From positions 64,001 through 128,000 of the IMG/VR virus record IMGVR_UViG_2907233695_000001: a DNA stretch of 64,000 nt; one strand, given 5' to 3'. Position 1 is the stretch's first letter; each line of letters opens with the position of its first letter. Shown here piece by piece: positions 2,753 to 41,844 of this stretch. The notes under the pieces were generated by a model. It had not been told where the DNA came from. It made no database searches and saw nothing but the letters and a program-made list of their open reading frames with translations. The translations under genes were made by a program, and so were the position numbers. Origin of the DNA: a virus. Taxonomy: Duplodnaviria > Caudoviricetes.

Positions 2753-3277
2753 TTATATTGAAGTTGATGACGTTTGAAATAAGTCAAATAAGTCCATGAG
2801 AATATCCGAATTAGTATACGCGGCAATCGCCTTATCTGAGATACGACTCAAGAATGATCCAATATCTTTAAACAGCTCAACTGGATTCATAAACTTTCCA
2901 TTCGCATCAATGAGACCAAAATGGAGATGATTGCCCGTTGAGTTTCCGCTGCTTCCGCATTTTCCAATTGCGTCTCCCCGTTGAACAAAATCTCCAACGT
3001 GTAACTTTGTTGACTCGCTAAAATGCCCGAACACCATTTGCTTACCGTCATTTAGTTTTATGATGATCCCATGGCCTAAACCTTTTGATCCTTGCTCGAC
3101 TACTCGTGACACAACCCCACTTAGAGGCGCATAAATCGAATCTCCTGCGTTGCACGTAAAGTCGATGCCCGTATGAGGAATTTTATGAACTGAGTCTACT
3201 GATCCGAATCCTGCGCTTACAGTGCCCACAGGAACAATCATAGTAACGAATCCACTCTTACGATAAACCACTTCCAT
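2753..3277 (-). CDS. M23-family metallopeptidase
   Basis: HTGID (HxxxD) and HLHF (HxH) Zn motifs, GNSTG. Confidence 0.9.
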   Translation of the reverse strand: MEVVYRKSGFVTMIVPVGTVSAGFGSVDSVHKIPHTGIDFTCNAGDSIYAPLSGVVSRVVEQGSKGLGHGIIIKLNDGKQMVFGHFSESTKLHVGDFVQRGDAIGKCGSSGNSTGNHLHFGLIDANGKFMNPVELFKDIGSFLSRISDKAIAAYTNSDILMDLFDLFQTSSTSI

Positions 3278-25412: not shown

Positions 25413-27786
25413 TCAATCTCTCCTTTGTTGTTCTTAATAAATTTTCTAAAAATGTTCTTCTTCGCATATTTTCAAACTTTTTACATGCAAAATTCAATGT
25501 CTCTGCCTGACACAGTATGATTACTCGTTGTTTGAACCTTGTGATAGCCGTGTAGATGAGGTTAGCGTTCAATTGGAACTTATGCGACTTGTCGAGGATA
25601 CATAACACTCCTTGACCACTACCTCCTTGAGATTTATGCATTGTCAATGCCCATCCATGCATCAGTTGCTCCATTTTCTCAAATGGAATAGATACAATTC
25701 CAACATCAAATTGAACATATATCCCAATCTTATGAGATAAGTCTTCTTCGTCATCAACATTGTCATCAACATTGTCATCAGTCTCATTTGTAGCGGTCGC
25801 TTCTAAGTCGCTTTCCTTTACAATATCAACGATAACTCCAGTATCACCGTTAACAATATCAACCCAAGAACCATTTAAATCTCGAATTTCATATGTATTT
25901 TTTGTATTCATAACATAATCGCCAATTCTAAATGTGCAGTCATCATGATACTTTAATTCTTTCTTCATCTCATCTGGAGGATTAACAATAGACTGAATAT
26001 GCTTATTAATCATCACTGTTCCAAGATTGCCTTTTTTAGTTGGGGTAAGCACCATGATATCTTCAGGCTTATAATATTGTAGCAGCAACTTATAGTAGTA
26101 TTTGTAACCATCTTCCATATGTTCTTGTGATACTGATCTTAACAATGCATCTGAACCAAATTTCTTTTCTCCGACAAAATTACTCTCGATAAATTTATGT
26201 CCCTGTCTTACATCTGTGGCAATAGAAAGTCCTCCACCTTCTGCTTGACGAAACACCTTATCTAACTTTGTAACAGGAAGCACTCCGCTATCCAAACAGT
26301 TCCTTAGAAAATTTCCGCACCCTACGGAAGCTATTTGAGCGTCATCGCCAATAAATACAACTCGTGCAAATGGGTTTACAATTTTTTTTAATAATACACA
26401 TGCTAATCTAACGTCCATCATTGAGACTTCATCAATAATAATAATGTCCTCTCGCAATTCATAATTAGCCTTATCCTCTTTATTCTTTTCCTGTCGTCCA
26501 TATCCAATTGCGCGATGTATGGTTGAAGCTTCAGTATCTCCAACATAAGTAGATAAAACTTTGGCAGCTCTCCCTGTTGGAGCTAATAGTCTGTACTTAA
26601 TAGCAGAACTGCCCCCATCTTCGACATCAGTCTCGTCGCTATATTCATCATATTTTACTTCTATTGTATCTAATACATTTGTTTCAGCATTCATTTTCTT
26701 TGCAAGATTAATGAGTATCTTCTGTAATGCAGATTTACCCATACCTGCTGATCCAATCAAAAAATTAACATTATACTTTGCAAAATTGTGAAAGAACTCT
26801 TTTTGCTTATCTGTCAGAGTCATACCCATTTCACGTTCCTGAGTAATCAGAAACTCACCAATATCAATATTAAGCGTGGTTGATTTATTCAATCTGTTCA
26901 ATAACAACTTCGCAACATCAGATTCAGCATCGTATGTTTTGCGCAGTGCTATCTTGTCGTCTTCTATGTATAACCCTTCAGTTTTATCAATTTCAGGCTC
27001 AATTAAACCTCTATCCAAGACGAGACATTCAGCAGCCTTCTCTAACAAATCATCATATTCTAAGTATGTATGACCAGATTGCTCCTCTTCGCTTATAATA
27101 TGTTTGATTCCTGCTTGGATACGAAACTTAGAGTTGTCGGGGATACCCATGTTCTTAGCGATGATATCTGCTTTTTTAAAGCCGATCCCATGTAAGTGTT
27201 CAGCTAAACAGTAGGGATTTTTCTTTACTTTTTCAATCGCATTATCAGCCGTCCCAAATACGTCGATCAATTTGCTGAAGTGTTCATACTTGACTCCGTA
27301 TTTACCCAACTCAGCGAATAGGGATTGCTGTTCAACGTTTTCAAGCAATTTTTTTCTGATTTTATTATATGTTTTACTGCCAATTCCTTTAATTTTAAAT
27401 AATTCGAACGTATTATGTATGAACATTTCCAGTATGTCTTGGTTTGGATATGCATTATAGAATGCTGACAACTGCAATTCAGTCATCATTGTCGAAAGAA
27501 AATCGCGTTTTTCTTGATTAGTCTTAGGTACGTCTCTATAAATGGTATGAACATTGTATCCGAAACCGTATTTTTTATCTTCTACACCTTCTAGTTTAGC
27601 CTTGTACACTATGTCTAAGATGAGTTCTTGCATCTTTCCTTTAATGCAAAAATTGCCGTATGAGTTTAGCTGAAATAAGTGTTCGTCATTAGGGTTTTGA
27701 GGGATCGCAGAATAGATACCAAATGAATTGTTGTAAAATAACTTTTTAGTTGGCACAATTTCAACTTCAATAATGTTTTTTGACAT
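25396..27786 (-). CDS. recD2: RecD2-family SF1B helicase
   Basis: GSAGMGKS, LAPTGRAA, STIHR, IIDEVSM, IGDDAQ, TMHKSQG, YTAITR; HhH N-terminus. Confidence 0.92.
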   Translation of the reverse strand: MSKNIIEVEIVPTKKLFYNNSFGIYSAIPQNPNDEHLFQLNSYGNFCIKGKMQELILDIVYKAKLEGVEDKKYGFGYNVHTIYRDVPKTNQEKRDFLSTMMTELQLSAFYNAYPNQDILEMFIHNTFELFKIKGIGSKTYNKIRKKLLENVEQQSLFAELGKYGVKYEHFSKLIDVFGTADNAIEKVKKNPYCLAEHLHGIGFKKADIIAKNMGIPDNSKFRIQAGIKHIISEEEQSGHTYLEYDDLLEKAAECLVLDRGLIEPEIDKTEGLYIEDDKIALRKTYDAESDVAKLLLNRLNKSTTLNIDIGEFLITQEREMGMTLTDKQKEFFHNFAKYNVNFLIGSAGMGKSALQKILINLAKKMNAETNVLDTIEVKYDEYSDETDVEDGGSSAIKYRLLAPTGRAAKVLSTYVGDTEASTIHRAIGYGRQEKNKEDKANYELREDIIIIDEVSMMDVRLACVLLKKIVNPFARVVFIGDDAQIASVGCGNFLRNCLDSGVLPVTKLDKVFRQAEGGGLSIATDVRQGHKFIESNFVGEKKFGSDALLRSVSQEHMEDGYKYYYKLLLQYYKPEDIMVLTPTKKGNLGTVMINKHIQSIVNPPDEMKKELKYHDDCTFRIGDYVMNTKNTYEIRDLNGSWVDIVNGDTGVIVDIVKESDLEATATNETDDNVDDNVDDEEDLSHKIGIYVQFDVGIVSIPFEKMEQLMHGWALTMHKSQGGSGQGVLCILDKSHKFQLNANLIYTAITRFKQRVIILCQAETLNFACKKFENMRRRTFLENLLRTTKERLNEVIA

Positions 27787-27802
27787 ATTTCATCTCCATT
27801 TT

Positions 27803-27958
27803 TTATTTTAATATCAATTTTAGTTTTCTAACCTTCTCTGGTGACATGCTAGTCTTTCCTCTTAAATACATACTCAACATTGCTCCTGTAACTCCTAATT
27901 GCTCTGCAATCCACTTCTGTTTAAGTCCTTTGTTTTTGATGGCACTCTGTAGTTCCAT
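27803..27958 (-). CDS. Cro-like XRE HTH (51 aa)
   Basis: Read manually: MELQSAIKNKGLKQKWIAEQLGVTGAMLSMYLRGKTSMSPEKV. Confidence 0.8.
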   Translation of the reverse strand: MELQSAIKNKGLKQKWIAEQLGVTGAMLSMYLRGKTSMSPEKVRKLKLILK

Positions 27959-28003
27959 TGTAAACATCTCCCGTTAATTATATTTAAGTAAATAAAAAAT
28001 AAA

Positions 28004-28029
28004 AAGTGTACTATATATTTAGTACACTT
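28004..28029. promoter_or_regulatory. 10-bp inverted repeat (operator or minus-strand terminator)
   Basis: AAGTGTACTA-N6-TAGTACACTT with a T-tract on the minus strand. Confidence 0.6.
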
Positions 28030-28094
28030 GTAATATACATTATTCACCATTCGAAATACAATACTTTTTACACATCTTTTTCATCTTTTATTAT

Positions 28095-29147
28095 TTATCT
28101 ATTTCCTATAATCTTCATCGCTTCTCTAAGCAATTGCGTTCTCATTCCATTTCTTGTTCCGTTGAGTAGCATTTTCATCTCATCAAATGTAAGTTCGTCA
28201 AAAGCGTCATTGTCAATTTCTTCATCCAACAAAATTCCAGCCATCTTAGATACATCACGCTTTTTGTTCACGTAAGATTTCCATAAAGTATTAATATCAC
28301 TATGTCCAGTCTGCATTTGAGCAGCTTTAAAGTCCCCTTGAGTATCAATGATGAAGTTGGGGGCAAAATTTCTGAAACTGTGGAAAACGATATTCCGTTT
28401 CGGATGTATGCCCAACTCTTCCTTTAGAGTGTTCATCATTTCCCAAATTGTTCTTTTGCTTAGATGGAAAATTTTATTGTCACTGTACCGCTGGTAGTAT
28501 GTAAGCGACTTGATTTGTTTCAGGTCATTGTACAAGTCAAGAGTAATCGGTTGAGACATTTCTTTATCAGTTTTTTCTTCAACTGTATTAACGAAACAAC
28601 AATTTTGTTCATGATCCACTTGCAAATCATCCCAAGAGAGATTTAACAGCGTATCTTCCCTGTAACTGGTGCGAGTAGCCATTCTAATAAGAAGACTCTT
28701 CTCCAATCCTTTAACCTGTTTTTGCACTGCAACAATCATAGCATCTACTTCTTCAGGGGATAAGTCGCCATAACTTTTGCTTTTATTATTTAGTTTATCA
28801 ATTTGAAATACTTCGGTATCGATTCCGTATTTCGTATCATATTTATTCCTTTTGAAGAATGCATATAAGCTTTGGAGGGAAGCAATTTTGCGATTCACAC
28901 TACTGGAAGAATATTTTTTATCATTAATTAAAAAGTTTCTATAATGAACAACTGTTTTATGTTCTATTTGAAGATCATCAAATGATAGCGAAAGCAAGTT
29001 TTTCCCTAGAAATGAGAAAAATAATTCAATATCATGTTTATAACCTATTTTTGTTCCCTCTGAAAGTCGCACGTCTTCGAGAAATAAGCATATATCAGAA
29101 TATACTGAACTATTAACAAATCCAACAATATTTTTAAGACTTTGCAT
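28095..29147 (-). CDS. Tyrosine recombinase
   Basis: SAM-like N-domain; R(SYRE), HSFR, GHS, Y(KSY) catalytic residues intact. Confidence 0.88.
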   Translation of the reverse strand: MQSLKNIVGFVNSSVYSDICLFLEDVRLSEGTKIGYKHDIELFFSFLGKNLLSLSFDDLQIEHKTVVHYRNFLINDKKYSSSSVNRKIASLQSLYAFFKRNKYDTKYGIDTEVFQIDKLNNKSKSYGDLSPEEVDAMIVAVQKQVKGLEKSLLIRMATRTSYREDTLLNLSWDDLQVDHEQNCCFVNTVEEKTDKEMSQPITLDLYNDLKQIKSLTYYQRYSDNKIFHLSKRTIWEMMNTLKEELGIHPKRNIVFHSFRNFAPNFIIDTQGDFKAAQMQTGHSDINTLWKSYVNKKRDVSKMAGILLDEEIDNDAFDELTFDEMKMLLNGTRNGMRTQLLREAMKIIGNR

Positions 29148-29167
29148 TGGTATCCCACCTCATTATT

Positions 29168-30667
29168 TTATGATTTCAACTTTTCATAATCATTTTTAAA
29201 CATCCATTTATATCCATGTGCTGATTTTCCCTTTCCATTGCAAACATTTGATATGCGACTACTTTGTTGTAAATTTAGTTCTCTCGCTGCTTTCGATTGA
29301 CTTTCAAATTCATCAATATACTCTCCGTTTAGGGTTAATCTTACAATACTTTTAGTGATGTGTATTTTTTCTGGCGTTTTTATTTTATCTTTTTCATTTT
29401 CATAATCATCTTTGTACATCCATATATACCCACCTGAATGCTTATATTTCCCTATGCACACATCTCGAATACTTTGATGATGAATATTAGTTTGTCTTGC
29501 AGCCTCAACACTGCTACTATACTTATTTATATATGTTCCATCTAAATTTAATTGAACTACGGGTTTAGGTTGGTTTTTTAATTTTTGAGGATCATATGCA
29601 CACCACCTAAGTTCATGACCGTATTTTAAATATCTTATCACTGTACTTTTGTTTAACAATAATTCTTTCTCGATTTGTTTAGCTGTTTTACCATTATTCC
29701 ATAATTCACATGTTGTTTTAATAATGGATTTCATTGAAAATTCATTGCAAACGTTCCAATCAACATCTGTTAAATCAAATAATATTGCTAACTCAGAATT
29801 TATTAAACTATTTTTAATAAAATTAAAATCAGAATATCGACAGTCAATAACAATATATTTGTTAATTTCATTTTCCTCTGCAAGTCGTTTTTTCATTTTA
29901 TCATTTTCAATTTCTTGTTCTAATGTTCTTCCTCCTACATTTGCAAATCCCTTCTCATAATGCTGTAGCCCATGCGTCTCTAATAGAACATCGACTTGAT
30001 TTACTTTAAAGTAAAAATCATATCTTTTTCCACTAGACCACTTAAATATTTTTTCTTTTTCAAATTGCACATTCAGTTGTCTTAATAAGGAAGTAATAAA
30101 TTTTTCAGGGTAGCTAATACTGTCTGAGCAAAATGGACAACCAACATTGTATAAAGTTCTTATTTGTACTTTCAGTTCAAACGGCAGTCCACAATTTGAA
30201 CAAAGAAACCATGCTTTTTGCTGAGATTGGGCATATGTAGATTTCGGTTTCTGTGCCCCATTCATTGTCGAATGCCATTCTTTTGCAATATTAGGAAACA
30301 AATAGTCCAATGATTTATTATATGGAGCATTTGTTCGATTCGACTCTCCACTTTTTAATTTTCCACAATCAACACATCTGTCTAATCCATCGATTTTTCT
30401 GTGTCTGATTATATTCTGATATTTTTGATTTAATATTCTTTTATTGCAGCAGTCACATATCTTAATAACCCTCTCATTACTACTTTTTAACAAATGTTCG
30501 ATTCTGACCAAGATTTTTGTTCCCTTGGGAACAATTAATTTGCCTTCATAATTTGGTTTTCTCGGAATAACATAACCTAATTCTTCGTAATATCTAATCA
30601 TCTTACTTGCTAAAGATGTCTCTACCCAATACGACCCATCCTTATAAATATCGGTAATAATCGCCAA
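29168..30667 (-). CDS. Zn-ribbon / PD-(D/E)XK / NUMOD1 homing-endonuclease-like protein
   Basis: CxxC pairs, RYDFY...ETHGLQHY, two NUMOD1-like repeats (VVQLNLDG...SSVEAAR...GGYIW). Confidence 0.75.
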   Translation of the reverse strand: MAIITDIYKDGSYWVETSLASKMIRYYEELGYVIPRKPNYEGKLIVPKGTKILVRIEHLLKSSNERVIKICDCCNKRILNQKYQNIIRHRKIDGLDRCVDCGKLKSGESNRTNAPYNKSLDYLFPNIAKEWHSTMNGAQKPKSTYAQSQQKAWFLCSNCGLPFELKVQIRTLYNVGCPFCSDSISYPEKFITSLLRQLNVQFEKEKIFKWSSGKRYDFYFKVNQVDVLLETHGLQHYEKGFANVGGRTLEQEIENDKMKKRLAEENEINKYIVIDCRYSDFNFIKNSLINSELAILFDLTDVDWNVCNEFSMKSIIKTTCELWNNGKTAKQIEKELLLNKSTVIRYLKYGHELRWCAYDPQKLKNQPKPVVQLNLDGTYINKYSSSVEAARQTNIHHQSIRDVCIGKYKHSGGYIWMYKDDYENEKDKIKTPEKIHITKSIVRLTLNGEYIDEFESQSKAARELNLQQSSRISNVCNGKGKSAHGYKWMFKNDYEKLKS

Positions 30668-30669
30668 CT

Positions 30670-30837
30670 TTATTCCTCCTTAACGTTTAATAATTTATTT
30701 AGCATACTTATTTTTTCTGGAGACAAATTCTTTTTTCCAGATAAAAATAATGACATCATTGTTTTGCTTATGCCAAGCTTATCTGCGAGAAATTGCTGCT
30801 TAATACCTCTCTCATTAATTAGTTGTTTATAATCCAC
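30670..30837 (-). CDS. Cro-like XRE HTH (55 aa), paralogue of 27803-27958
   Basis: Read manually: MDYKQLINERGIKQQFLADKLGISKTMMSLFLSGKKNLSPEKI. Confidence 0.8.
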   Translation of the reverse strand: MDYKQLINERGIKQQFLADKLGISKTMMSLFLSGKKNLSPEKISMLNKLLNVKEE

Positions 30838-30995
30838 ATCATTCAGCCTTTCGTATAGGGTAAACTTTTGTTTACCTATGTATAAAAAATTCGGAGATTG
30901 AACATCTCCTATTTTTAATATAACATATTTACCAATTAGTGGTCAATTATTTTTTCACTATTTTTTATTTTTTATTTATCTTAATACTTTCTTCA

Positions 30996-31211
30996 TTAAT
31001 AATCCCAAAAATGACTCGCTCTCTTACTTGGATCAATCTGCTTTACACCATCCATAATCTTCTTCATTACATTTTGGCTAGGAATCCATCCGTTCCGAGT
31101 TAATGCGGTTCTAAGAGTATCTGTAGTAATACCTATCTCTTCGGCAAACTCAACTTGGTTGTATGCGTCCTGTTCATCATAAAACCATTTGCCAAACGGT
31201 GTTAGCGACAT
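30996..31211 (-). CDS. XRE HTH regulator divergent from the tubZ/ftsK cluster
   Basis: TPFGKW...QVEFAEEIGI...WIPS...IMDG...FWD. Confidence 0.7.
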   Translation of the reverse strand: MSLTPFGKWFYDEQDAYNQVEFAEEIGITTDTLRTALTRNGWIPSQNVMKKIMDGVKQIDPSKRASHFWDY

Positions 31212-31246
31212 AAAAAATACATCTCCTTGGACTTTAAGTTAGAAAC

Positions 31247-31338
31247 TAGTATTGTCCAAGCAGTGACATTTTAAAACAAGCTATACCGAAATTTTTTGGT
31301 ATGAGTTGGTATCAGGACAAAATATCCACTCATATCCT
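31247..31338. promoter_or_regulatory. Divergent sporulation-sigma-like promoters
   Basis: Minus strand GTTTTA..GGACAATACTA (sigma-F/G-like, 31247-31277); plus strand CATATCCT -10 (sigma-E/K-like, 31331-31338); no sigma-A consensus seen. Confidence 0.4.
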
Positions 31339-31378
31339 GTAACATAAAGCAAAAACAACATGAATTCAGAAAGGAGCG

Positions 31379-31669
31379 ATGAAGATGGAACAGTATTTTA
31401 AAGATGTGGTTGGCGAATTATCAATAGACGATATGAACTTCCTCGGTGTTCTTTACGACAATGACGCTACAGCAGGATTTAAAGCTATGACGCATAGTGT
31501 TGTAATGGATAAGGTTGGTTTGTCAGAGGCTACATTCCGTAAAGTGGTATATCGACTAGTAGCGAACAAATTCATCTCTACAGTCCCAAATAAGCGTCAA
31601 CACAGCGTTTATCTCACCCACTATGGTATCGCAGCATTGAAGATTAACGTCGAAGGAGTGAGTGCTTAA
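31379..31669 (+). CDS. Winged-helix DNA-binding protein, TubR-like
   Basis: 96-aa wHTH pattern (GLSEATFRKVVYRL...VYLTHYG); stop overlaps the tubZ start. Confidence 0.6.
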   Translation: MKMEQYFKDVVGELSIDDMNFLGVLYDNDATAGFKAMTHSVVMDKVGLSEATFRKVVYRLVANKFISTVPNKRQHSVYLTHYGIAALKINVEGVSA

Positions 31670-32778
31670 TGTTAGGTGTTCTAGGGTTAGGTCAGGCAGG
31701 ATCGAATTTCGCAGAAGAAGCTTCAAAATACGGAATTGTATCTGGTGTCATTAACTATTCTCAAAAAGATTTGGATTCAGTCGATGTAAAACACAAATTG
31801 AGGTTGTTGGGGTCAGAGGGAGTAGGAAAAAATCGAGATGAGGCCATCGCTCTCTTTCAGGATCAGTGGGAAATTGCTTTAAAGTTCATCCAAGATCATT
31901 TTTCAAACTGTGATGTAATTGCATTCGCTTTTTCATCGAGCGGAGGTTCTGGAAGCGGTATAAGCCCAATCTTGCTGGACATAGCCACTAATTCCATGCC
32001 TGATAAAACATTCATTGCTTTTGTGGTAATGCCCGAATTAAGCGAAGCAACTTCTAGTCAAATCAACTGCCTAAAGACGTTTGAGGAGTTATCTGGCTTA
32101 AACATTGCAATCTTCCCTGTTGATAATCAACTAGTTCGGAACCAAAATCCGTATGTCGGAAAAAATAAACTATATGAATTGTCCAATAGGAACTCCATTG
32201 CGTTGCTTTATAAATTGGCTATGTATACAGATATGCACTCCAAAAACGGTAACTTTGATAAAAAAGATTTCATAACTGTTCTCAGAACTCAGGGGATCGC
32301 AACAATTGCTGAAGTAGATATTGCTGTTGTAGGTCAAAACATCAGCCTCACTCCTGAAGGTGTAGCCGATAAAGTCAGAAAGTCGTGGGCTAATACATTA
32401 TTTACACCTGTTGAAATGGAAAAAGTAACACGAGCAGCAATTATCTTCGATGGTCAGGAATCTTTAATGGAGCAAATTCGTCACGACCTGATGTTCTCGG
32501 AGTTTATACATGGGATGCCAGTGGATTTGTTCGAGGGTAATTATCATGAAAGCAATGGGAAAATTGTCTCTATCTTGACTGGTCTTGCATGGTGTAACTC
32601 GCGCTTACAAGATATTGAAAGATTGAACAAGAGCAACCAAGAGCGTGTTGAATCCATGATGGCGAATCAAATGAGTTATCAGTCTAATGCTTCTGACCTG
32701 CTTAGTAAGATTCGTAAACCAGTTGAGAAAGAGCAGAAAAAGTCGATGCTGGATATTTTGAGTAAATATAAGAGGTGA
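31669..32778 (+). CDS. tubZ: Tubulin/FtsZ-family GTPase (TubZ/RepX-like)
   Basis: GLGQAGSN, GVGKNR, SGGSGSG signature, PVDN, NFDKKDF T7 loop, helical C-terminal tail. Confidence 0.88.
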   Translation: MLGVLGLGQAGSNFAEEASKYGIVSGVINYSQKDLDSVDVKHKLRLLGSEGVGKNRDEAIALFQDQWEIALKFIQDHFSNCDVIAFAFSSSGGSGSGISPILLDIATNSMPDKTFIAFVVMPELSEATSSQINCLKTFEELSGLNIAIFPVDNQLVRNQNPYVGKNKLYELSNRNSIALLYKLAMYTDMHSKNGNFDKKDFITVLRTQGIATIAEVDIAVVGQNISLTPEGVADKVRKSWANTLFTPVEMEKVTRAAIIFDGQESLMEQIRHDLMFSEFIHGMPVDLFEGNYHESNGKIVSILTGLAWCNSRLQDIERLNKSNQERVESMMANQMSYQSNASDLLSKIRKPVEKEQKKSMLDILSKYKR

Positions 32779-32957
32779 GAAAAATGCTTCTTGAAACATT
32801 GCTCGCGTACACCGTTAAAGTGGCGATGTTACATCCCTTTAAGTATTGTGGCCTCATGGGTGCTTTAACAATAAAGAAAACAATGGATGATGCAGAAAAG
32901 GAAAAGAAATTTGAAGTAGTTTGCAAAATCAGCGAAATGAAAAAATACATTGTCTAA
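32775..32957 (+). CDS. Small hypothetical protein
   Basis: Coupled to tubZ; GAGGTG RBS. Confidence 0.55.
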   Translation: MRKMLLETLLAYTVKVAMLHPFKYCGLMGALTIKKTMDDAEKEKKFEVVCKISEMKKYIV

Positions 32958-32972
32958 GGGAGAGTGTTTACT

Positions 32973-33134
32973 ATGACAAAACAAAACAAAATGGAAATCA
33001 TCGCAATGCTGCTTAAATTGGAGACTCAAGGCGTGGAGTTAAATCTGACCAAAGAGGGATTCGAGTGGTATTACCAACTGCAACAAGAGGTTTTAGGGGA
33101 AACGTCCGAAGATGTTCAAGAGTTGGTTGGTTAA
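32973..33134 (+). CDS. Small acidic hypothetical protein (53 aa)
   Basis: MTKQNKMEIIAMLLKLETQGVELNLTKEGFEWYY...; AAGGGAG RBS. Confidence 0.6.
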   Translation: MTKQNKMEIIAMLLKLETQGVELNLTKEGFEWYYQLQQEVLGETSEDVQELVG

Positions 33135-33233
33135 TCCATCTTTTCCTTAATTTCATCTTCTCACTGTTTAAAATCATCTTTCCCAAGTGCCGTTTTGCCC
33201 ACTTTTCGAGACAAAAGAAAAAGGGAAAGATGA

Positions 33234-33458
33234 TTAATATCTCTTTCCCTCTCTTTCCAATACCTCATATTCCTTCATTATTTCAATGACCTCTCTAAGT
33301 TTGCGTTTAGAGAGTCCAGTCTTGTCGGCAATTTCACCTTCATAGAACTCAAATTTTCTTTCCCACTCCGGTTTGATTCTTTTGTGGTTGTCGAGGATCA
33401 TACTGGAGATTCCAACTACATAAGAAGCAGCAGAAATAATTTTATTAAGTTTAGTCAT
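33234..33458 (-). CDS. Small HTH-like protein inverted within the cluster
   Basis: GGGGGAG RBS; EIADKTGLSKRKLREVIEIMKEYEVLER. Confidence 0.55.
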   Translation of the reverse strand: MTKLNKIISAASYVVGISSMILDNHKRIKPEWERKFEFYEGEIADKTGLSKRKLREVIEIMKEYEVLEREGKRY

Positions 33459-33517
33459 GAATAATCTCCCCCTCTGCTTTTTATTTTTATTATGTTCCGA
33501 GGAGAGGTGTTTTAAAC

Positions 33518-33706
33518 ATGGAAGTAATAACAGCAATGGCAGTGGTTGCACTTGGCTTGAAAGTTGCAGTAGCTCTGGGGTCAGTGGTCGGAATTACTTC
33601 AGGAGTCAATTGGTTCAACAAGAAGACCATTAATCTGAAAGGTAGTGGTAAGGATGAAGGTAAGCATGAATCCCTCCCGAGATTTCACCGTGATGATATC
33701 GAGTAA
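33518..33706 (+). CDS. Small membrane protein
   Basis: Hydrophobic N-half; GAGGTG RBS. Confidence 0.6.
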   Translation: MEVITAMAVVALGLKVAVALGSVVGITSGVNWFNKKTINLKGSGKDEGKHESLPRFHRDDIE

Positions 33707-34181
33707 ATCATTTGTTGTGGGAGAGAATGCCGTAACGAGTGAAACGGAAAATTTTTTCGAAGCATTAAAAGAGGAGGTGATGCAGAACCCAAAGCAAGCC
33801 AAATCGTTGCTCAAGAATCTTTGTACAACAGGTACAACATTGGCATCCATGTTAATGCAAACAAACTTAGCTATGGCTGCTCCAACAAGTCCAGTTCCGA
33901 CAGATATTACGGACGGACTAAAGGCAACAATAATAACAATAATTGTAATAGGCGTAGGTTTATCGATAATTTTGCTTTCACTGTCCTCAATTCTCAAAAT
34001 GTCTCCAATAAAAAACAAGGCAGACGAATGGTCGGTGAACATCCTCAAGGGTCTAGCTCAACTACTGATGGCTCCAATCATAGTCGGTCTGATAGTGGGA
34101 CTATACTTTCTTCTCTTTGGCAACGTTGCAATTTTTCAGCCAATCGAAGACCCAATTCGAGTATTTTTTCAACATCATTAA
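33645..34181 (+). CDS. VirB2/TrbC pilin-like membrane protein
   Basis: Signal-like segment ending AMA-A, two TM helices separated by KNKADEWSVNILKG. Confidence 0.55.
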   Translation: MVRMKVSMNPSRDFTVMISSKSFVVGENAVTSETENFFEALKEEVMQNPKQAKSLLKNLCTTGTTLASMLMQTNLAMAAPTSPVPTDITDGLKATIITIIVIGVGLSIILLSLSSILKMSPIKNKADEWSVNILKGLAQLLMAPIIVGLIVGLYFLLFGNVAIFQPIEDPIRVFFQHH

Positions 34182-34198
34182 AAAACAAACAACAATTT

Positions 34199-35452
34199 AT
34201 GATTGCAATGGCTCCACTTTCACTCTCGGATTTATTGTTTGGGAAAGAGCATCAAAAGGGAGTTATTACTGAACTCGCGACAAATGAGAAGATGCAGGAG
34301 AACATGAAGCAATCCTCTCTCTTTCCTTCAATTAGCGATTGGCTAGGGATTAAGCAGAAGATTCAAGAATTAGCAGAACAACTCCACCAACAAGCCCTCC
34401 TAACACCTGACCCTAATGACGATAAGATTGACTTTGTAAAATACATGTATGACTATGTAGGCGCAGCTCCAGCCACTCATTTTATGCCTGACTGGTTTAA
34501 AGAAATAATCATCTACATCAGTGCGATGTTCAATCAGTTGACTCATAATTCTGTGCAATTTGTTTTTAAGAAGATATATGAGTTTGTAACCAAAATCGTC
34601 ATCTATACTCCCGAATGGATATTTAACAACTCATGGTTCCCTTCCTCGGTTGCAAAATTCTCATCAGTAAGCGTGATCCTGATTATCATCATAGCGATGA
34701 TTGAAGGTATCAAGCGCATGTGCAAACTCAATCATACACCTTATCCAGATTTCCTAAAAAGACTTCCTATAGCTTTGGGAGTATCGGCTGCTACGCCATT
34801 CATTTTTTCAAGTGGTCTTAAATTACTTAACACGGTAACTGACTGGATTCTTAAACTAGGGGCAGATGAAATCGGTGCAAATAAGGCTGTTGGGATTTTC
34901 ATTACTCCCATACTTTTTGAGCCAGTAAATGCAATCGTGATGGTTCTATTCTTAATTCTAATCTCATTATTATGCGTACCTATGCTCTTATTACATGCTC
35001 GTCGTTGGTTCGATCTTACTATGCTTGGAATGTTAACACCTTTAGCTATGGTTGCATTTATTTTTGACTCTACAAGAGATTATTTTAATCAATGGCTAAG
35101 AGGAATTAAGCGGTTGGGATTGGTTCAACTTGCGTATGCAGGATTCGTTACAGTTATAGGAATATTAATGTTCGGGACACCTAACCCCACTACATTCACA
35201 GGAGTAATTTCTAAAACACTTTTGCTAACAGGTGGAATATACCGTCTCGCTTTTCCTCCTCAAATTGTAAAGAATTTTGATGATAACGCAGCAGGTATGT
35301 ATAGATGGATGCAACAGTTGAAGGATAGAGAAATTAGAGATGGCAAATTGAAACGTGTTGAAACTGCCAAAGAAATGAGTGAAGGTGCTCTACTTGGTTC
35401 GGCTAAGATTGCAGGTAAAGCATACAGAATTATATTTAAAAAGAGAGGTTGA
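34199..35452 (+). CDS. VirB6/TrbL-like polytopic membrane protein
   Basis: About 6 TM segments; RRWFDLTMLGMLTPLAMVAFIFDSTRDYFNQW resembles the TrbL core; start uncertain. Confidence 0.6.
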   Translation: MIAMAPLSLSDLLFGKEHQKGVITELATNEKMQENMKQSSLFPSISDWLGIKQKIQELAEQLHQQALLTPDPNDDKIDFVKYMYDYVGAAPATHFMPDWFKEIIIYISAMFNQLTHNSVQFVFKKIYEFVTKIVIYTPEWIFNNSWFPSSVAKFSSVSVILIIIIAMIEGIKRMCKLNHTPYPDFLKRLPIALGVSAATPFIFSSGLKLLNTVTDWILKLGADEIGANKAVGIFITPILFEPVNAIVMVLFLILISLLCVPMLLLHARRWFDLTMLGMLTPLAMVAFIFDSTRDYFNQWLRGIKRLGLVQLAYAGFVTVIGILMFGTPNPTTFTGVISKTLLLTGGIYRLAFPPQIVKNFDDNAAGMYRWMQQLKDREIRDGKLKRVETAKEMSEGALLGSAKIAGKAYRIIFKKRG

Positions 35453-35455
35453 TAC

Positions 35456-37768
35456 TTGATGGTACTAAAACAACTTTTACCTAAGTCATTATCGCTTCCA
35501 GATGTACGGCATTTCAATTTCGATGGATTAACTATTCATATGTTAAAGTCCTATCTTGCCACAATTCCTGTGGCAGATAGGATATACGGAATTGAATGTT
35601 TCATTAGCAAGGATAAGTTAGAACCTTTCTTTATTGCCGAATCGCATTCAGTTGACCTTCCAATTCAGCAGACAGAAAGTAAGCTTATCCTGAGAGAATA
35701 TGGTGAATCAAACTGTAGCTTTCTCTACTCCAACAAATCATCAGTGTTTCCATTTACAATGAGTGAATCCCCTATCGAGGGGCTGCATGAAATCGGCACA
35801 CAAATGAAAGATGATGAATTGATCATATTGCAAGTACTTGCGATTAAAAAACAAACCGAGTTCTGGAATGACAAATTAACGGATCAGTATATTGACTACA
35901 TCAATGGAGTGGAATATCCCACAAATAATAAAATAATCCGAGGTATTCAGCACAAAATAATGGAGATTCAGGCTAAACTCGAAGGTGGATATAGAAGAAA
36001 TCAACGTATTAATGAGGCCGAAAAAAAACTAAAGGAGGATATGTTTCAGACCGAGGTTCGCTTCATGGTAATCGCGCCAAATAGAGACACTAGACGAAAA
36101 TTGGCAAGGTTAGTGCATTCGAAATTTTCCAAGGTCGATTATGTGAATAGTTGGCTACTGTCAGAAGATAAGGACATTCATGGCTATTTTGAGGATGTGC
36201 AGTTGCGTAGACCATCGTTGAGTTACCCTAGACAAATATTGTGTGCCTCAGAGTTGGTTAACTTGTTAATGATCTCGAAACATCAACCGTTAGAAGTAGT
36301 AACTCCAATCATTGAACCTGCGGCACCTCCTATTCCTGCTGCGATTGAATCGCCTGTGTCAGAGGAAGATAAGAGCAACCCATTTGCGCTCTTTCCAAGA
36401 GGTTCGAAACTGGTACGTGAAAATGATGTTAACTTTGCATCGAATCTAAATAATGCCCTTAAAAAACTTTCATTGACCACAGCAGATGTTGTAGTACAAA
36501 AATTTCAACATGGGGCAACCACACAAAAAATTACATTTAGTTTACCTGCTGGATTAAAATTGTCAGACTTAACGAAGTCAACACAGAATATTCAAGTGGA
36601 GCTTGGAATGAATAGCATAAGTTTTGAACAAGGCGATGTCGCAGGTACGGCTAACATTATTATCCCACAAGAGGATAGAGAAATGGTATTCGTTCGTGAT
36701 TGCAGTGAATCATTAGCATTTCAGGAGAAGACGAAAAAGTATGAGTTGCCAATATTCTTTGGAGTGGATACCGCTGGAGAAATCGTCATGACTTGTCTTA
36801 CCATGATAAAGCATCTTCTAATCGCTGGTACAACTGGTTCAGGGAAGAGTTATTTTCTAAATACGTTGCTTGTTGTGCTATTCTCACTTGTTAGTCCTGA
36901 CATGCTAAAAGTGTATATGCTTGATCCAAAAAAAGTTGAGTTATCAGGATACAGGTCGTTTCCCCACGTCCAGAATGTTTATACTGAAATGAACGAAGCC
37001 GAAGGTGTGCTGTTCTTCTTGTGTGCGAAAATGGAGGAGCGTTACTCGTTATTCGAACAAAAGGGCTATAAAAATATTCAACAATATAACAAGCATGAGA
37101 AAGTGAAACTCCCCTACCTTCTACTAGTCATCGATGAGTTGGCTGATTTGATGTCAACAAACTCTGAAGTGGAGGAGTATTTGGTTAGATTAGCTCAAAA
37201 GGCCAGAGCAGCAGGAATCCACCTTATAATTGCAACACAATATCCAATTAGAGAGGTTGTAACACCGCTCATCAAGCGGAACATTTATTCTCGCGTATGT
37301 CTTATGTTAGACAGTTCAACAGCGTATCGTGTTGTGCTTGACGAGGCTCCTAAGTACACGCTTCTTGGTAAAGGAGATGGAATGTATCGGCTTGAGGGTA
37401 TCCAAGGCATACACAGGTTCCAAGGGGCTGTAATAGGCAAGGATGACGATGAGCAGGAAAAAGCAATTGAGAGATTGTCGTCATTTTGGAAAAGCGACAA
37501 CAAAAAAGAAGTTATTGATCTTGAGGCTGCTAGGAATAAGAAACGTAACGATGAAACCAAGGCGTTCAGAAAAGTCGTACTCGAAACAGGTGAAACACGG
37601 ATATCAGAATTGCCGAAAGTGTTGGAAATGAGAACAGAAAAAGTCAAAGCATATATGGATGAATTGGTCATATTAGGTTGGGTTAAGAAGCATAGTGCTA
37701 GATCGAAGGGATATGAATTACTACTCTCCCCTGAACAACGTAAAGTTGAACTTGAAAAATTAAAATGA
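35456..37768 (+). CDS. ftsK: FtsK/SpoIIIE-family DNA translocase
   Basis: HLLIAGTTGSGKS, MLDPKKVEL, LVIDELADL, LAQKARAAGIHLIIATQ, LLGKGDG; C-terminal wHTH. Confidence 0.9.
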   Translation: MMVLKQLLPKSLSLPDVRHFNFDGLTIHMLKSYLATIPVADRIYGIECFISKDKLEPFFIAESHSVDLPIQQTESKLILREYGESNCSFLYSNKSSVFPFTMSESPIEGLHEIGTQMKDDELIILQVLAIKKQTEFWNDKLTDQYIDYINGVEYPTNNKIIRGIQHKIMEIQAKLEGGYRRNQRINEAEKKLKEDMFQTEVRFMVIAPNRDTRRKLARLVHSKFSKVDYVNSWLLSEDKDIHGYFEDVQLRRPSLSYPRQILCASELVNLLMISKHQPLEVVTPIIEPAAPPIPAAIESPVSEEDKSNPFALFPRGSKLVRENDVNFASNLNNALKKLSLTTADVVVQKFQHGATTQKITFSLPAGLKLSDLTKSTQNIQVELGMNSISFEQGDVAGTANIIIPQEDREMVFVRDCSESLAFQEKTKKYELPIFFGVDTAGEIVMTCLTMIKHLLIAGTTGSGKSYFLNTLLVVLFSLVSPDMLKVYMLDPKKVELSGYRSFPHVQNVYTEMNEAEGVLFFLCAKMEERYSLFEQKGYKNIQQYNKHEKVKLPYLLLVIDELADLMSTNSEVEEYLVRLAQKARAAGIHLIIATQYPIREVVTPLIKRNIYSRVCLMLDSSTAYRVVLDEAPKYTLLGKGDGMYRLEGIQGIHRFQGAVIGKDDDEQEKAIERLSSFWKSDNKKEVIDLEAARNKKRNDETKAFRKVVLETGETRISELPKVLEMRTEKVKAYMDELVILGWVKKHSARSKGYELLLSPEQRKVELEKLK

Positions 37769-37779
37769 GGTGAAATTGA

Positions 37780-38581
37780 ATGGTTCTGAAAATGAATGGA
37801 ATTCCATTAACTATTGATGATAGTGGAGTAAATGTTAAGTTGGATATCGCTGAAATTATTCATACGCCGATTAACGTTGATATTACGTATGCTGGTCATC
37901 ATTTGATTAATGGAGATATCAACATGATAAATTTCTGGAGTCATGCTTACGATCATGCTGTTAGTGCTATAGGAAGTCTATTTTAAGGAGGGTGACGAAC
38001 ATGCTTGGGACTCTAATAGTCGTTAATTTGATTACAGGGGTTGTCGGAGCTACTTACATGGGAGCATCACTTGGGAGTAAAATGGGCAAAAGATTGAATA
38101 AAAAAATTCATGGTAAGTATTCAAAGTATAATGAGATAGTGACCATCGCTAAAGGGTCTGATTTGAGGCTCAAATGAAAAAACATTTTTACACATTCGAC
38201 GTTGGTTATTCATGCGTACCTGATGACGATGACAGTGAATACGGTGGATGGGACTTTAGAGAGTATGAAAGCATTTTCGAGGCCGTAAACACCATGCTGT
38301 CCGAATATGGACATTTGGAATTTCATATTCAGCATTTAGAGAAAAATTATGCTTCAATATACTTTCCCAAAGTGGATGATGTAAGCGATAACGGAATTAT
38401 TTTTAAGATATATCGTATGGGGTCTACTCCGTCTAAGGTGGAATTCATATGTGACTCTTGCTTCAGAAAAAATGTGGTAGTTGAATGCGATGATTGCAAG
38501 GAATTGCATTTGTGCCTTAATTGCGATTATTGTTCCACTTGTTGGGAACATAAATTTGAAGATGAGGAAGAAAATGCATAG
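37780..38581 (+). CDS. Three small ORFs (37780-37986; 37992-38177 TM; 38174-38581 with a Cys-rich C-terminus)
   Basis: RBS; coupled downstream of ftsK. Confidence 0.6.
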
Positions 38582-38767
38582 AAAAATGAAATCATTATTT
38601 TAATGGAATCCATTTTTGTGGATTCTTTATTTTTTATTTTGAAAAGTATTGACCTTTAAAAGCAAAAGATGGTAATTTAAGTGTGCAGGGAACAACTACC
38701 AAATGTACCTGCCGAATCTAAATCTTAGAGGGAGTGATAAAATGAAAAATACAAAGGAGAAGATTAA

Positions 38768-39252: not shown

Positions 39253-41844
39253 TTGAATAATAGTTTGCATAAGCCTGTATACATACCGTCAATTGAAGCA
39301 AATGATATTTATTCGCACATGCATCGAGATAAGGACATTGATCGTAAGTATGTGGGGATGATTCCAAGTAGCTTAGAATTGAATAAATTAGTAAGTATTG
39401 GTCTTTCCATGTATAAAAAGAAGCCAAGTGAGAAATTTCTATCAGACGATATTATTAACGTTAAGTTTAAGCAGAAGGTTAAATCAGCAGATGAAATGGT
39501 ATCACAGATTAAGAAGAAGATCAATCTGCTTACAGATAATCAGGCTGATTACAAAAATAAATTAGAAGAATTCGTACAACTATTGAAACAGGAAAAAATT
39601 CTTCCCAAATGGAAAGAAGTAAGTAATGACCAATTAAGAAAACTATTATACGAGAATGGCTTCGTTCTAACTTCAATTGATGACAAAACAGACGCTATTA
39701 TTAAAACAAGATATGTGGTTTACAAGAGGAGTTCCGCAAAGAGTCGAGTTGGAGAGTGCTTGTTTATTAAAGAGACCTTATACGATGAGATGATAAATTG
39801 GAGTCGTATGAACCTCCCTCTTCAGGATGTTAAGGTGGATGTTCCTAGTTTGCTTGCGTATCAATCCCTAGTTGGTTCGTCTCTCGATGATGTTGTAAAA
39901 ATTCATCCTAATAATATTCTCTTGGTCGATGACATTGAGAGTAAATTCTTAAGAAAGTGCAATGTTGTCCGAAAGGGCGAAAATGGATTGCTGGACAGTT
40001 TTCAAGAAGATATTGTAATTTCTAATAGTTTGTTTGATGGCGAATCGCTGTTAGATAGCAGTTACTTCCCTGAAGATAAAGGAATGATGTTGCTTCGTAA
40101 TCACATGTTTAAATCAGCAGCCTTCAATTGCAATATTCAATCGTATCTAAGGGATAACTGTCCAGAAGGTATCAACTTCGATGAGTGGAAAATAAAAAAC
40201 GCGTATAATGAAGTCTTCGCAAAGGATATTCATTTAATAATTACTCCAAGCAGTTTAAAGGCTTTAAAATTTAGTCACGCAGTTGGTAACGATTCAGAAA
40301 TGTTTAGTTATTGGAAGAATTATATTTCTGACGTAAGCATTGACGGAGCATCACTCTTTGGTGTTGTTAAGAGTGAAAAGAAATCTAAGCATGGGTTAAA
40401 TGAGAGTGGAGAAATCCTTCAGCAAACATCGTATCAAATGCTCAATAGTATGCCAGTAAATAAAAATGACATCCATGAACTTGCTGAATACGAAAATACA
40501 TATATTGAAAAATTAAAAAATGACGATGACTTTTTTGTTCAACACATCTTAAAGTCTGTCACCACTGTAAATAGTAACGCTATGTTTGCTGATCTTTATT
40601 ACCGTAACAAGAAAATTGCACATACGAAGATATTTAAAGATTTCCGCAAGGCCGAGGTTAATAAGCACCTGACTCATATTAAACATGGAAAGATTAGATT
40701 GCACGGTGATTACTGCACGATGTTAGGGAATCCAATGGAATTTCTGGTTCATTCCATTGGGCGCTTAAATATTTGTGAGGATGAATCCAGTCTTAAAGAA
40801 AATGAAATATACACTACTTTATTTGAGTTTAACAAGTGTTTGGTGGGCTTTAGAAATCCTCACACAAGTCCTAGTAATGTATTAGTAGTCAAAAACACTT
40901 ATAATGCGGAGATTGAGAAATATTTTAACTTAACTGACAACATCGTTTGTGTCAACGCAATTAATTTCCCATTGCAAGACATATTAAGCGGTTCTGATTA
41001 TGATTCAGATACATTGCTACTATTCGATAATTCGAAAATGCTTGAGTTAGCAATGAATTGCTTTGGCAAATACAATGTCTGCATTAACAAGGTTGAGAGC
41101 AGCAAAAGGCAATATAACTTAACCGAATCAGATATGGCAATCATTGATAACCAATTGTCAATGAGTCAAAAGAATATTGGCAGAGTCGTAAACCTTGGGC
41201 AATTTTGTATGTCAAAGTATTGGGACTTATTGAACAAAGGAGTGAATAAAGACAACCTTACTGATTTATTGAAGAAAATAGATATTATGACTGTTTTAAG
41301 TGGCATATGCATTGATTTGGCAAAGAAATTCTATGATATTGATATTAATCAAGAGGTTGAGCAAGTTGCAAAAACAAAGGAATTAAATTGTCGGAAGCCT
41401 CTGTTCTGGAAATACGTTAGCCAGAACAAGGAAATAAAAACATTTGAGATGCAATGCCCCATGGATTATCTATACATAGAGTTTTCAGACGTTAAATATG
41501 CTGAGACGCGAGAAAGTATATCTCTGAATGAACTACTCGTGAAGCATAAAATAAAAGATGGAGATAGAAATCAGGAACAAAAAATAATCAAATACGTTGA
41601 GGAAATGAGCAATAAGATAATTAAGGTGTACATTAATATAGCCGATGAAGACGAAAGAAATCACATTTTAGATGATATAATCAAGTATTACGACTTCTAT
41701 ATTAGCAAATTAAAGGTTAAACCGGAAACAATGTATGCAATTTTATCAAAGATACAGAAAAATAAAAGTAAAGTGTCAACAAGATTGATGAATGTCTTAT
41801 ATAGAACACAGAAAAACATTTTTTTAAATGCAATTAATACATAA
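39253..41844 (+). CDS. yonO: YonO-type single-subunit DNA-dependent RNA polymerase
   Basis: KRSSAKSR.G, LFDGESL, LLRNHMFKSAAF, FRNPH, SGSDYDSD catalytic DxDxD; upstream of HU as in SPbeta. Confidence 0.9.
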   Translation: MNNSLHKPVYIPSIEANDIYSHMHRDKDIDRKYVGMIPSSLELNKLVSIGLSMYKKKPSEKFLSDDIINVKFKQKVKSADEMVSQIKKKINLLTDNQADYKNKLEEFVQLLKQEKILPKWKEVSNDQLRKLLYENGFVLTSIDDKTDAIIKTRYVVYKRSSAKSRVGECLFIKETLYDEMINWSRMNLPLQDVKVDVPSLLAYQSLVGSSLDDVVKIHPNNILLVDDIESKFLRKCNVVRKGENGLLDSFQEDIVISNSLFDGESLLDSSYFPEDKGMMLLRNHMFKSAAFNCNIQSYLRDNCPEGINFDEWKIKNAYNEVFAKDIHLIITPSSLKALKFSHAVGNDSEMFSYWKNYISDVSIDGASLFGVVKSEKKSKHGLNESGEILQQTSYQMLNSMPVNKNDIHELAEYENTYIEKLKNDDDFFVQHILKSVTTVNSNAMFADLYYRNKKIAHTKIFKDFRKAEVNKHLTHIKHGKIRLHGDYCTMLGNPMEFLVHSIGRLNICEDESSLKENEIYTTLFEFNKCLVGFRNPHTSPSNVLVVKNTYNAEIEKYFNLTDNIVCVNAINFPLQDILSGSDYDSDTLLLFDNSKMLELAMNCFGKYNVCINKVESSKRQYNLTESDMAIIDNQLSMSQKNIGRVVNLGQFCMSKYWDLLNKGVNKDNLTDLLKKIDIMTVLSGICIDLAKKFYDIDINQEVEQVAKTKELNCRKPLFWKYVSQNKEIKTFEMQCPMDYLYIEFSDVKYAETRESISLNELLVKHKIKDGDRNQEQKIIKYVEEMSNKIIKVYINIADEDERNHILDDIIKYYDFYISKLKVKPETMYAILSKIQKNKSKVSTRLMNVLYRTQKNIFLNAINT

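Follow-up and report, generated by a model that had tools for sequence, protein, structure and literature searches.

A tubulin-type segregation pair beside a putative secretion-derived, FtsK-type DNA translocon in a large SPbeta-like phage, with the forespore as a possible destination

Why should a large phage from an assembly with endospore genes keep a tubulin-type segregation pair ahead of genes that resemble parts of a type IV secretion system (T4SS) and of an FtsK/SpoIIIE DNA pump? The question is raised by a 64,000-nucleotide stretch of the IMG/VR virus record IMGVR_UViG_2907233695_000001, here called the window, which comprises bases 64001-128000 of contig C13 (164,118 bp, 35.2% G+C) in a 7.56-Mb assembly (50.7% G+C). 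The cluster in question encodes TubR and TubZ, followed by three genes that we refer to as the triad, for a VirB2/TrbC-like pilin-type protein, a VirB6/TrbL-like polytopic membrane protein and a 770-aa FtsK/SpoIIIE ATPase. The answer that we prefer, tentatively and with rather less than even confidence, is that the cluster joins TubZR segregation to a secretion-derived, FtsK-driven translocon for double-stranded DNA (dsDNA), whose preferred target would be the forespore.

The ATPase belongs to phrog_3551 (6.9e-148), a family of FtsK/SpoIIIE proteins of Bacillus phages including Grass, Bc431v3, SIOphi and others, and its C-terminal half is a recognisable FtsK motor. The motor is also matched by NCBIfam FtsK (2e-49), its Walker A (GTTGSGKS) and Walker B (VIDELADL) sequences are both intact, and residues 353-761 share 34% identity with the host's own FtsK in an alignment that extends through the host gamma domain, a region in which the C-terminal winged helix of the phage protein has a weak Pfam match (TrmB, 0.075). 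The only other FtsK homologue in the assembly is the chromosomal one. The long N-terminal part is soluble, as an initial annotation made from the DNA alone had supposed, with hydropathy indicating no transmembrane helix anywhere in the protein and no hydrophobic segment before residue 466. With no membrane helix, the ATPase has to be brought to the membrane by a partner, and the predicted structure of the N-terminal domain suggests what kind of partner this may be. Modelled from eight sequences (pLDDT 65, pTM 0.63), the domain was matched by Foldseek to TrwK, the VirB4 protein of plasmid R388, at all of ranks 1-10 with probability 1.00, and alignment to TrwK/VirB4 chain 7o42_A with VIA-align gave Z 15.3 (rmsd 4.2, 229 residues aligned), the runner-up chain reaching Z 7.3. 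In the R388 structure, the VirB4 N-terminal domain is the part that is seated on the membrane subunits. From these models the 770-aa protein looks like a chimera, in which a VirB4 docking domain has been joined to an FtsK motor for duplex DNA; its ATPase domain is itself FtsK-type, and its score against the Gram-positive VirB4 family AAA_10 (18 bits) falls below cut-off. The absence of VirB4 noted in the initial annotation is correct in that the assembly encodes no separate VirB4, AAA_10 having no match above cut-off in the 7.56 Mb, and incorrect in that a VirB4-type domain is predicted within the FtsK-like protein. We also considered an identity as a type VII secretion (EssC-like) ATPase, and rejected it on the basis of the single ATPase domain, the gamma-like winged helix, the top score to FtsK and the lack of a WXG100 gene nearby.

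The two genes upstream of the ATPase encode the membrane proteins of the triad. The start of the VirB6-like gene was corrected from 33821 to 34199, giving a 417-aa form identical to the database gene call. At the level of sequence families its match to Pfam TrbL (2.7e-4) is below cut-off, and precomputed TrbL or TrbL_4 assignments are present on 4 of 18 homologues. A model built on 18 homologues (pLDDT 68) retrieved TrwI/VirB6 of R388 at all of Foldseek ranks 1-5 with probability 1.00, and VIA-align, which is independent of Foldseek, gave Z 10.2 to TrwI and Z 8.9 to DotA of the Dot/Icm channel, with other chains at 5.9 or below. The polytopic protein, first described as TrbL/VirB6-like, is predicted on this basis to have the VirB6 fold. 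In the 178-aa protein, alignment and hydropathy together indicate a basic stretch, a long hydrophobic leader ending in A-x-A, and two hydrophobic helices with a basic loop between them; the alignment of its family appears to be that of a propilin, in keeping with the earlier description of a VirB2/TrbC-like protein with two transmembrane helices. Also in the family, phrog_3528, are the counterparts from SIOphi, 0305phi8-36 and a Niallia plasmid. The Niallia homologue reaches Pfam TrbC/VirB2 above cut-off (2.9e-7), and over 12 members of the family TrbC matches two and T4SS_pilin one. Comparison of a profile of the family with solved structures gave no match. A VirB2-like layout, a VirB6 fold and a VirB4 N-domain attached to an FtsK alpha-beta-gamma motor are what would be expected of a stripped-down DNA-delivery machine of T4SS origin, as the initial annotation had proposed.

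The genes at the head of the cluster had been read as a coupled winged-helix and TubZ pair, and this identification is secure: both proteins match their families (Table 1), and the start of tubZ and the stop of tubR share a single base (31669). The closest solved relatives of the window TubZ are TubZ structures of phage c-st (4xcq/3v3t, 2e-17), its G-rich signature loop reads SSGGSGSG, and it is 27% identical over its full length to gp138 of phage G. TubR is conserved in four metagenomic relatives (L005, L007, L016 and L017). This tubZ is the one tubulin gene on the phage contig, and no actin-like (Alp) gene is present there. Upstream of tubR, where a classical system would have its tubC site, no iteron array was found, again in agreement with the first reading of the DNA; the region contains just two tandem 10-bp repeats (TTGGTATGAG / TTGGTATCAG) and one inverted copy, at 31296-31334, together with a palindrome, CCGAAA-N-TTTTGG, that is partly conserved in L017. 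The cumulative GC skew of the contig has its minimum at approximately 94-95 kb, equivalent to approximately 30-31 kb of the window (30000-31400), and it coincides with the divergent intergenic stretch that has the leftward replication genes on one side and tubR on the other. From its position, the region is likely to be a replication origin or a partition site. At 34005-37634 of contig C80, the assembly has a further gene of TubZ type (E 2e-19 against TubZ of phage G), 2 kb from which Replic_Relax gives a weak match.

The three genes of the triad form a conserved module. The order VirB2-like gene, VirB6-like gene, ATPase gene was kept at every locus examined, these being five SPbeta-like loci, three Bastillevirinae, 0305phi8-36, four megaplasmids and one genome, in a survey of context that covered some 20 loci, where the phages with the VirB6-like gene number 162, and was assembled from tblastn matches, contig look-ups and genome searches. 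A pattern scan for related loci with close alignment returned one locus. The VirB6-like gene was detected by tblastn in 162 phage records, all except two from Bacillus phages, and in 13 large plasmids of 121-491 kb, each of which was typed as non-mobilizable by MOB-suite. Of 400 genomes sampled from other species of Bacilli, only 3 had this gene, and at 50% identity its family has 130 representatives among 1.84 billion proteins. In a detail that departs from the initial annotation, the module is not confined to plasmid-like phages, and it is most frequent in those that have been called lytic or virulent (including in PMC3601020). No near-identical DNA was found in phage or plasmid collections, and no plasmid of the reported size or serovar of pXO16 was among the 13 with a VirB6-like gene. 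One of the plasmid loci, in the 250-kb CP053689.1 filed under Arthrobacter citreus NEB 577, places the triad beside a gene for an alpha/beta-type small acid-soluble spore protein; such a gene does not fit an actinobacterial host, and the organism name of this record is therefore probably wrong.

In phages, the module is also found next to genes for a cytomotive filament. In the Bastillevirinae SIOphi, Eldridge and Bc431v3, an actin-like partition protein (Pfam ALP_N, phrog_691) and a small adaptor-like ORF precede the triad, as does an M23 peptidase in two of these three loci. The unrelated myovirus 0305phi8-36 has the same pair of Alp and small ORF upstream of its triad, in which the ATPase is a phrog_5156 variant that has the N-domain in common and is followed by a Replic_Relax protein. 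Each of these four genomes, of 147-219 kb, has a single ALP_N gene, and it is located 2.0-2.9 kb from the VirB6-like gene. In the window phage and its four metagenomic relatives, the position of Alp upstream of the triad is occupied by TubR-TubZ. The placement of two non-homologous cytomotive filaments at the same site by the same machine is a classic signature of functional partnership, and the link between filament and machine that was first suggested from the window alone is supported by its recurrence. Related arrangements are found further afield. Phage G (498 kb) has a TubR-like/TubZ pair and, approximately 6-10 kb further on (85059-93336 of its record), a secretion-type set of Replic_Relax, metallopeptidase, T4SS_pilin/TrbC, TrbL_4, a VirB4-like ATPase (P-loop_TraG, AAA_10) and a phrog_5156 ATPase, which by its gene content appears to be near-complete and Gram-positive in style. 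In PHROGs the VirB4-like protein of this set is classed as "terminase large subunit" (phrog_2666), apparently in error, and the label "VirB-like" in the phage G record is the sole earlier trace of a likeness to secretion. In SPO1 (91819-97329 of its record), a single leftward block consists of gp27.9 (Alp), gp27.8, three tiny ORFs, gp27.4 (906 aa, phrog_5156) and gp27.3 (Replic_Relax); it has no VirB6-like gene and is a reduced relative of the module. What reads as an SPO1-style variant of the filament and ATPase module is also present in the assembly itself, on contig C83, a second element of low G+C (69 kb, 39.7%), where adjoining genes at 25560-30133 of the minus strand encode an actin-like Alp, a peptidase of the M23 family and, at 804 aa, a phrog_5156-type homologue of gp27.4 from SPO1. 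The Bastillevirinae are related to one another, and hence the independent events are few; from the distribution of genes there would have been at least three, in the Alp lineages, in the SPbeta-like lineage with TubZ, and in phage G.

It is very unlikely, in our judgement, that filament and triad are unrelated neighbours, brought together by accident, with TubZR serving ordinary partition and the triad serving superinfection exclusion, the handling of host DNA, or the export of protein or a pilus. Such an arrangement would be consistent with the megaplasmid triads that have no adjoining filament, with the approximately 0.9 kb between tubZ and the triad in the window phage, which holds small ORFs, among them one on the opposite strand (a similar run is present in its relatives), and with the classification of phrog_3551 by PHROGs under moron/host takeover. 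It would not readily account for the fact that genomes of about 150-220 kb have their one filament gene no more than 3 kb from the triad, for two non-homologous types of filament in separate lineages, or for the filament genes that are also near the variant modules of phage G, SPO1 and contig C83.

The nature of the substrate depends on what else the phage encodes. Profiles for Relaxase, Rep_trans and Mob_Pre had no match in the 7.56-Mb assembly, in which MOBF/TrwC was not searched for, and Replic_Relax had no match on the phage contig; neither VirB3, VirB5, VirB7-VirB11, VirD4 nor oriT was found, with the limit that no search was directed specifically at VirB8. A relaxase had also not been visible to the initial annotation, which allowed that a complete T4SS or a relaxase elsewhere in the genome could explain the genes; the assembly was searched for these and they were not found. 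As there is no relaxase, we infer that the substrate is dsDNA, as it is in the FtsK-driven conjugation of Streptomyces and pELF. The idea that the triad is a remnant of a conjugative element was rejected, given that the assembly has neither VirB4 nor relaxase, that all carrier plasmids are typed non-mobilizable, and that the VirB6-like gene is so sparse in genomes of Bacilli.

A functioning, conjugation-like route is a separate possibility. In this scheme the filament would feed a pore through which phage dsDNA enters a neighbouring cell, either across the vegetative septum of a chain or across two envelopes, so that the phage would spread without particles. All three parts of the triad derive from conjugation machinery, the module has peptidoglycan hydrolases with it in Bastillevirinae (M23) and phage G (metallopeptidase), Replic_Relax accompanies its variants in phage G, 0305phi8-36 and SPO1, and minimal FtsK-motor systems with VirB6-like analogues are proven in pELF and Streptomyces (PMC13492992). 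We nevertheless consider it unlikely that the window phage uses its cluster in this way, since none of the 13 carrier plasmids is typed as mobilizable, the cluster showed no genes for adhesins or aggregation, the window phage has no relaxase or oriT, and transfer of 150 kb from a cell committed to lysis would be of little obvious benefit.

The reading that we favour, of a filament-coupled dsDNA translocon, can be set out as a series of steps. TubR would bind a site on the phage genome, probably just upstream of tubR at the GC-skew minimum, and TubZ filaments would move the unintegrated 164-kb genome. The VirB2-like and VirB6-like proteins would make up a membrane platform, on which the soluble ATPase would dock via its VirB4-type N-terminal domain. 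DNA handed over by the filament would then be pumped as a duplex through the membrane by the hexameric FtsK-type motor, with the C-terminal winged helix providing steering. The membrane crossed would most likely be a septal one. The preferred target would be the sporulation septum, such that a copy of the genome ends in the forespore.

A septum is also where a vegetative role would be exercised. The motor might clear the episome from closing septa and activate dimer resolution by the nearby tyrosine recombinase, with the VirB2-like and VirB6-like proteins acting as anchors only and TubZR carrying out bulk partitioning. The motor is indeed nearest to chromosomal FtsK, with the gamma-like domain included; a tyrosine recombinase gene is situated 2 kb upstream of the cluster, and XerS is near the triad of the Niallia plasmid; the cluster is at the GC-skew minimum beside replication genes; and the phage is on a separate contig and probably episomal. 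To this segregation helper we nonetheless assign a low probability. The lytic or virulent phages in which the module is commonest need no stable partition, a pilin-type leader protein, a VirB6 fold and a VirB4 docking domain exceed what anchors require, and the M23 hydrolases of Bastillevirinae would be left unexplained.

For the translocon that we prefer, the forespore is a plausible destination. Phage genomes trapped in Bacillus spores are termed virospores, and to our knowledge the machinery of trapping is understood only for phi29, where it operates via the host Spo0J. Both Bacillus and Niallia are spore-forming genera. The carriers of the triad are of three kinds, all of them unintegrated replicons, whose survival through the spore stage depends on entry into the spore, and the hosts named in their records are all spore formers or carry spore genes. 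In Eldridge and Bc431v3, SigF/SigG-like genes are located a few kb upstream of the triad. Other pointers, likewise circumstantial, are that 160 of the 162 matches to the VirB6-like gene in cultured phages are from Bacillus, that the 13 carrier plasmids are all typed as non-mobilizable, and that one plasmid has a spore-protein gene beside its triad. The assembly to which the phage contig belongs encodes SpoIVA, and the host is therefore expected to form endospores. The idea that phage segregation genes promote entrapment in spores has already been published (PMC10294663, PMC12991052). In a wider form, the proposal would be that large phages and megaplasmids of spore-forming Bacillales have in common a secretion-derived, FtsK-powered conduit, fed by a filament, that delivers the genome into a forespore or sister cell; in this generality we hold it to be doubtful.

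Several points count against delivery to the forespore, or against the translocon as such. SPO1 forms virospores (PMC12991052) and has no VirB6-like gene, which means that entrapment as such does not depend on the triad; the SpoIIIE of the host could serve the same purpose; and the restriction of the module to Bacillus phages may reflect phage lineage instead of sporulation. The megaplasmid triads have an XRE-type regulator ahead of them and lack a filament gene within 10 kb. No KOPS/SRS-like skewed motif on which the gamma-like domain might act was found on the phage contig, where SRS (GAGAAGGG) and KOPS variants occur 0-2 times. The 178-aa protein of the window itself has no Pfam TrbC match, and the models of the VirB6-like protein and the ATPase N-domain are of middling confidence and are derived from shallow alignments. 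Of the proposal, the identities of the genes, the folds, the order of the genes and the lack of a relaxase are observations, and the docking, the dsDNA substrate, the hand-over from filament to pump and the forespore as destination are deduced from them.

The coordinates of the cluster are collected in Table 1. The small membrane ORFs of the initial annotation are confirmed by hydropathy as two one-helix proteins, one in the run between tubZ and the triad and the other among the trailing ORFs. A scan of the cluster for sigma-70 promoters performed no better than on shuffled sequence. No cell-wall hydrolase was found between 31 and 39 kb, and the sole M23 peptidase of the phage contig is at 2753-3277 of the window.

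Table 1. Features of the tubZ and triad cluster, in window coordinates.
Feature	Position	Strand	Match or basis
Region upstream of tubR, candidate operator or tubC site	31205-31378		sequence read directly
TubR, winged-helix centromere-binding adaptor, 96 aa	31379-31669	+	solved TubR 4asn, E 4.5e-17, residues 3-88
TubZ, tubulin/FtsZ-fold GTPase, 369 aa	31669-32778	+	Pfam Tubulin 1.5e-13, 51.9 bits vs cut-off 33
Small ORFs: 60 aa, 56 aa (+), 105 aa (-) and a 62-aa one-helix membrane protein (33518-33706, +)	32775-33706		no family match
VirB2/TrbC-like pilin-type protein, 178 aa	33645-34181	+	phrog_3528, 3.7e-15
VirB6/TrbL-like polytopic membrane protein, 417 aa	34199-35452	+	phrog_3750, 5e-68
FtsK/SpoIIIE ATPase, whole gene, 770 aa	35456-37768	+	Pfam FtsK_SpoIIIE 1e-41
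ATPase N-terminal domain, residues 1-275, predicted VirB4 N-terminal-domain fold	35456-36280	+	fold match to TrwK
FtsK/SpoIIIE-type motor with C-terminal winged helix in gamma position (~37550-37717)	36512-37768	+	Pfam, NCBIfam
Trailing ORFs: 68 aa, a 61-aa one-helix membrane protein (37992-38177) and a 135-aa Cys-rich protein	37780-38581	+	no family match
Terminator-like hairpin followed by T run, end of cluster	38605-38626	+	

The remainder of the contig is that of a phage, with genes for terminase, portal, a YonO-type RNA polymerase (phrog_8308), a PhoH-like protein, replication proteins and tyrosine recombinases. The polymerase is an 863-aa phrog_8308 protein (5.5e-174) at 39253-41844 of the window, in the position of the single-subunit RNA polymerase YonO of SPbeta, and the gene for the PhoH-like protein comes after it. 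Metagenomic relatives with the same gene order additionally encode homologues of HU, YonK, YonJ and YonG. Given the YonO-type polymerase and these homologues in the relatives, the element is concluded to be a large SPbeta-like phage; as its DNA was assembled on a contig of its own, its genome is probably unintegrated, that is, episomal. The difference between the contig and the assembly in G+C is unusually wide for a phage and its host, and a mixed culture or a wrongly assigned host is possible. The tyrosine recombinase gene nearest to the cluster is at 28095-29147. ORFs resembling homing endonucleases flank the region at 29168-30667 (phrog_4538/20162) and 45177-46196 (phrog_12131), the first of them situated between this recombinase gene and the tubR promoter region. 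Over both arms of the contig, the gene-sense strand has 30 copies of the 8-mer ATACATAG, often lengthened to ATACATAGGAGG, and the opposite strand has 4, with about 6 expected. As the most over-represented skewed 8-mer it was considered as a polar motif, and this was rejected, as it runs into a GGAGG that resembles a ribosome-binding site and is more likely to be regulatory, perhaps as a promoter or leader element of the phage.

More than 100 sequenced Bacillus phages carry an FtsK/SpoIIIE gene. Such genes have long been annotated as a curiosity of unknown role (PMC3853049, PMC3601020), and they can now be placed in a fixed three-gene, secretion-like translocon that travels with a cytomotive filament, which turns the curiosity into a concrete and testable machine. 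We found no description in the literature searched that ties Bacillus phages to VirB6/TrbL, a VirB4-type domain to a phage FtsK, or a filament to a translocon. If the DNA is delivered into forespores or neighbouring cells as proposed, viruses would have a new means of persisting or of being transmitted, and the module would be a dedicated viral machine for entry into dormancy or for spread without particles. Nature would also provide, in this module, a new case of a minimal pore of the dsDNA conjugation type, and cytoskeletal filaments of bacteria would for the first time be linked in function to a DNA pump. Tractable test systems exist in the Bastillevirinae recorded on Bacillus subtilis, for example SIOphi, Grass, Goe3 and SBSphiJ.

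The finding combines known kinds of system, namely minimal FtsK-driven DNA transfer and TubZRC partition, and the latter is already known in phages from c-st. The window pair resembles TubZRC of pBtoxis, pXO1, Clostridium phage c-st and pBM400 of B. megaterium in its homologous TubR and TubZ, in the order tubR-tubZ with overlapping stop and start, and in residing on a large unintegrated replicon. In contrast to these, no iteron-type tubC array was found with it, and downstream is a membrane and ATPase triad that is not known in the classical systems. The ATPase has the alpha-beta motor and canonical Walker A and B motifs of FtsK, SpoIIIE and SftA, with a C-terminal winged helix that is gamma-like in its position, whereas it has a soluble domain of predicted VirB4 fold in place of their N-terminal membrane domain, and no KOPS/SRS-like motif was detected to go with it. 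The FtsK/SpoIIIE proteins annotated in Bacillus phages (phrog_3551) are of the same protein family and have the same two membrane genes upstream. Compared with the inner-membrane complex of the R388 T4SS, consisting of TrwL/VirB2, TrwI/VirB6 and TrwK/VirB4, the triad similarly brings together, in adjoining genes, a putative pilin-type protein, a predicted VirB6 fold and a predicted VirB4 N-domain fold, and differs in that its ATPase domain is FtsK-type rather than VirB4-type, its host is Gram-positive and its carrier is a phage. FtsK-motor conjugation of dsDNA, as carried out by TraB and Spd of Streptomyces, TraC/TraD/TraG of E. faecium pELF and TcpA/TcpH of C. perfringens Tcp, likewise combines an FtsK motor, and a winged helix that could recognise a site, with few membrane proteins and no relaxase (PMC13492992). 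These systems are encoded on conjugative plasmids for which transfer has been shown, while the triad is carried by phages and by plasmids typed as non-mobilizable. Unlike them, the triad has a putative VirB4-type docking domain and a cytomotive filament as its partner.

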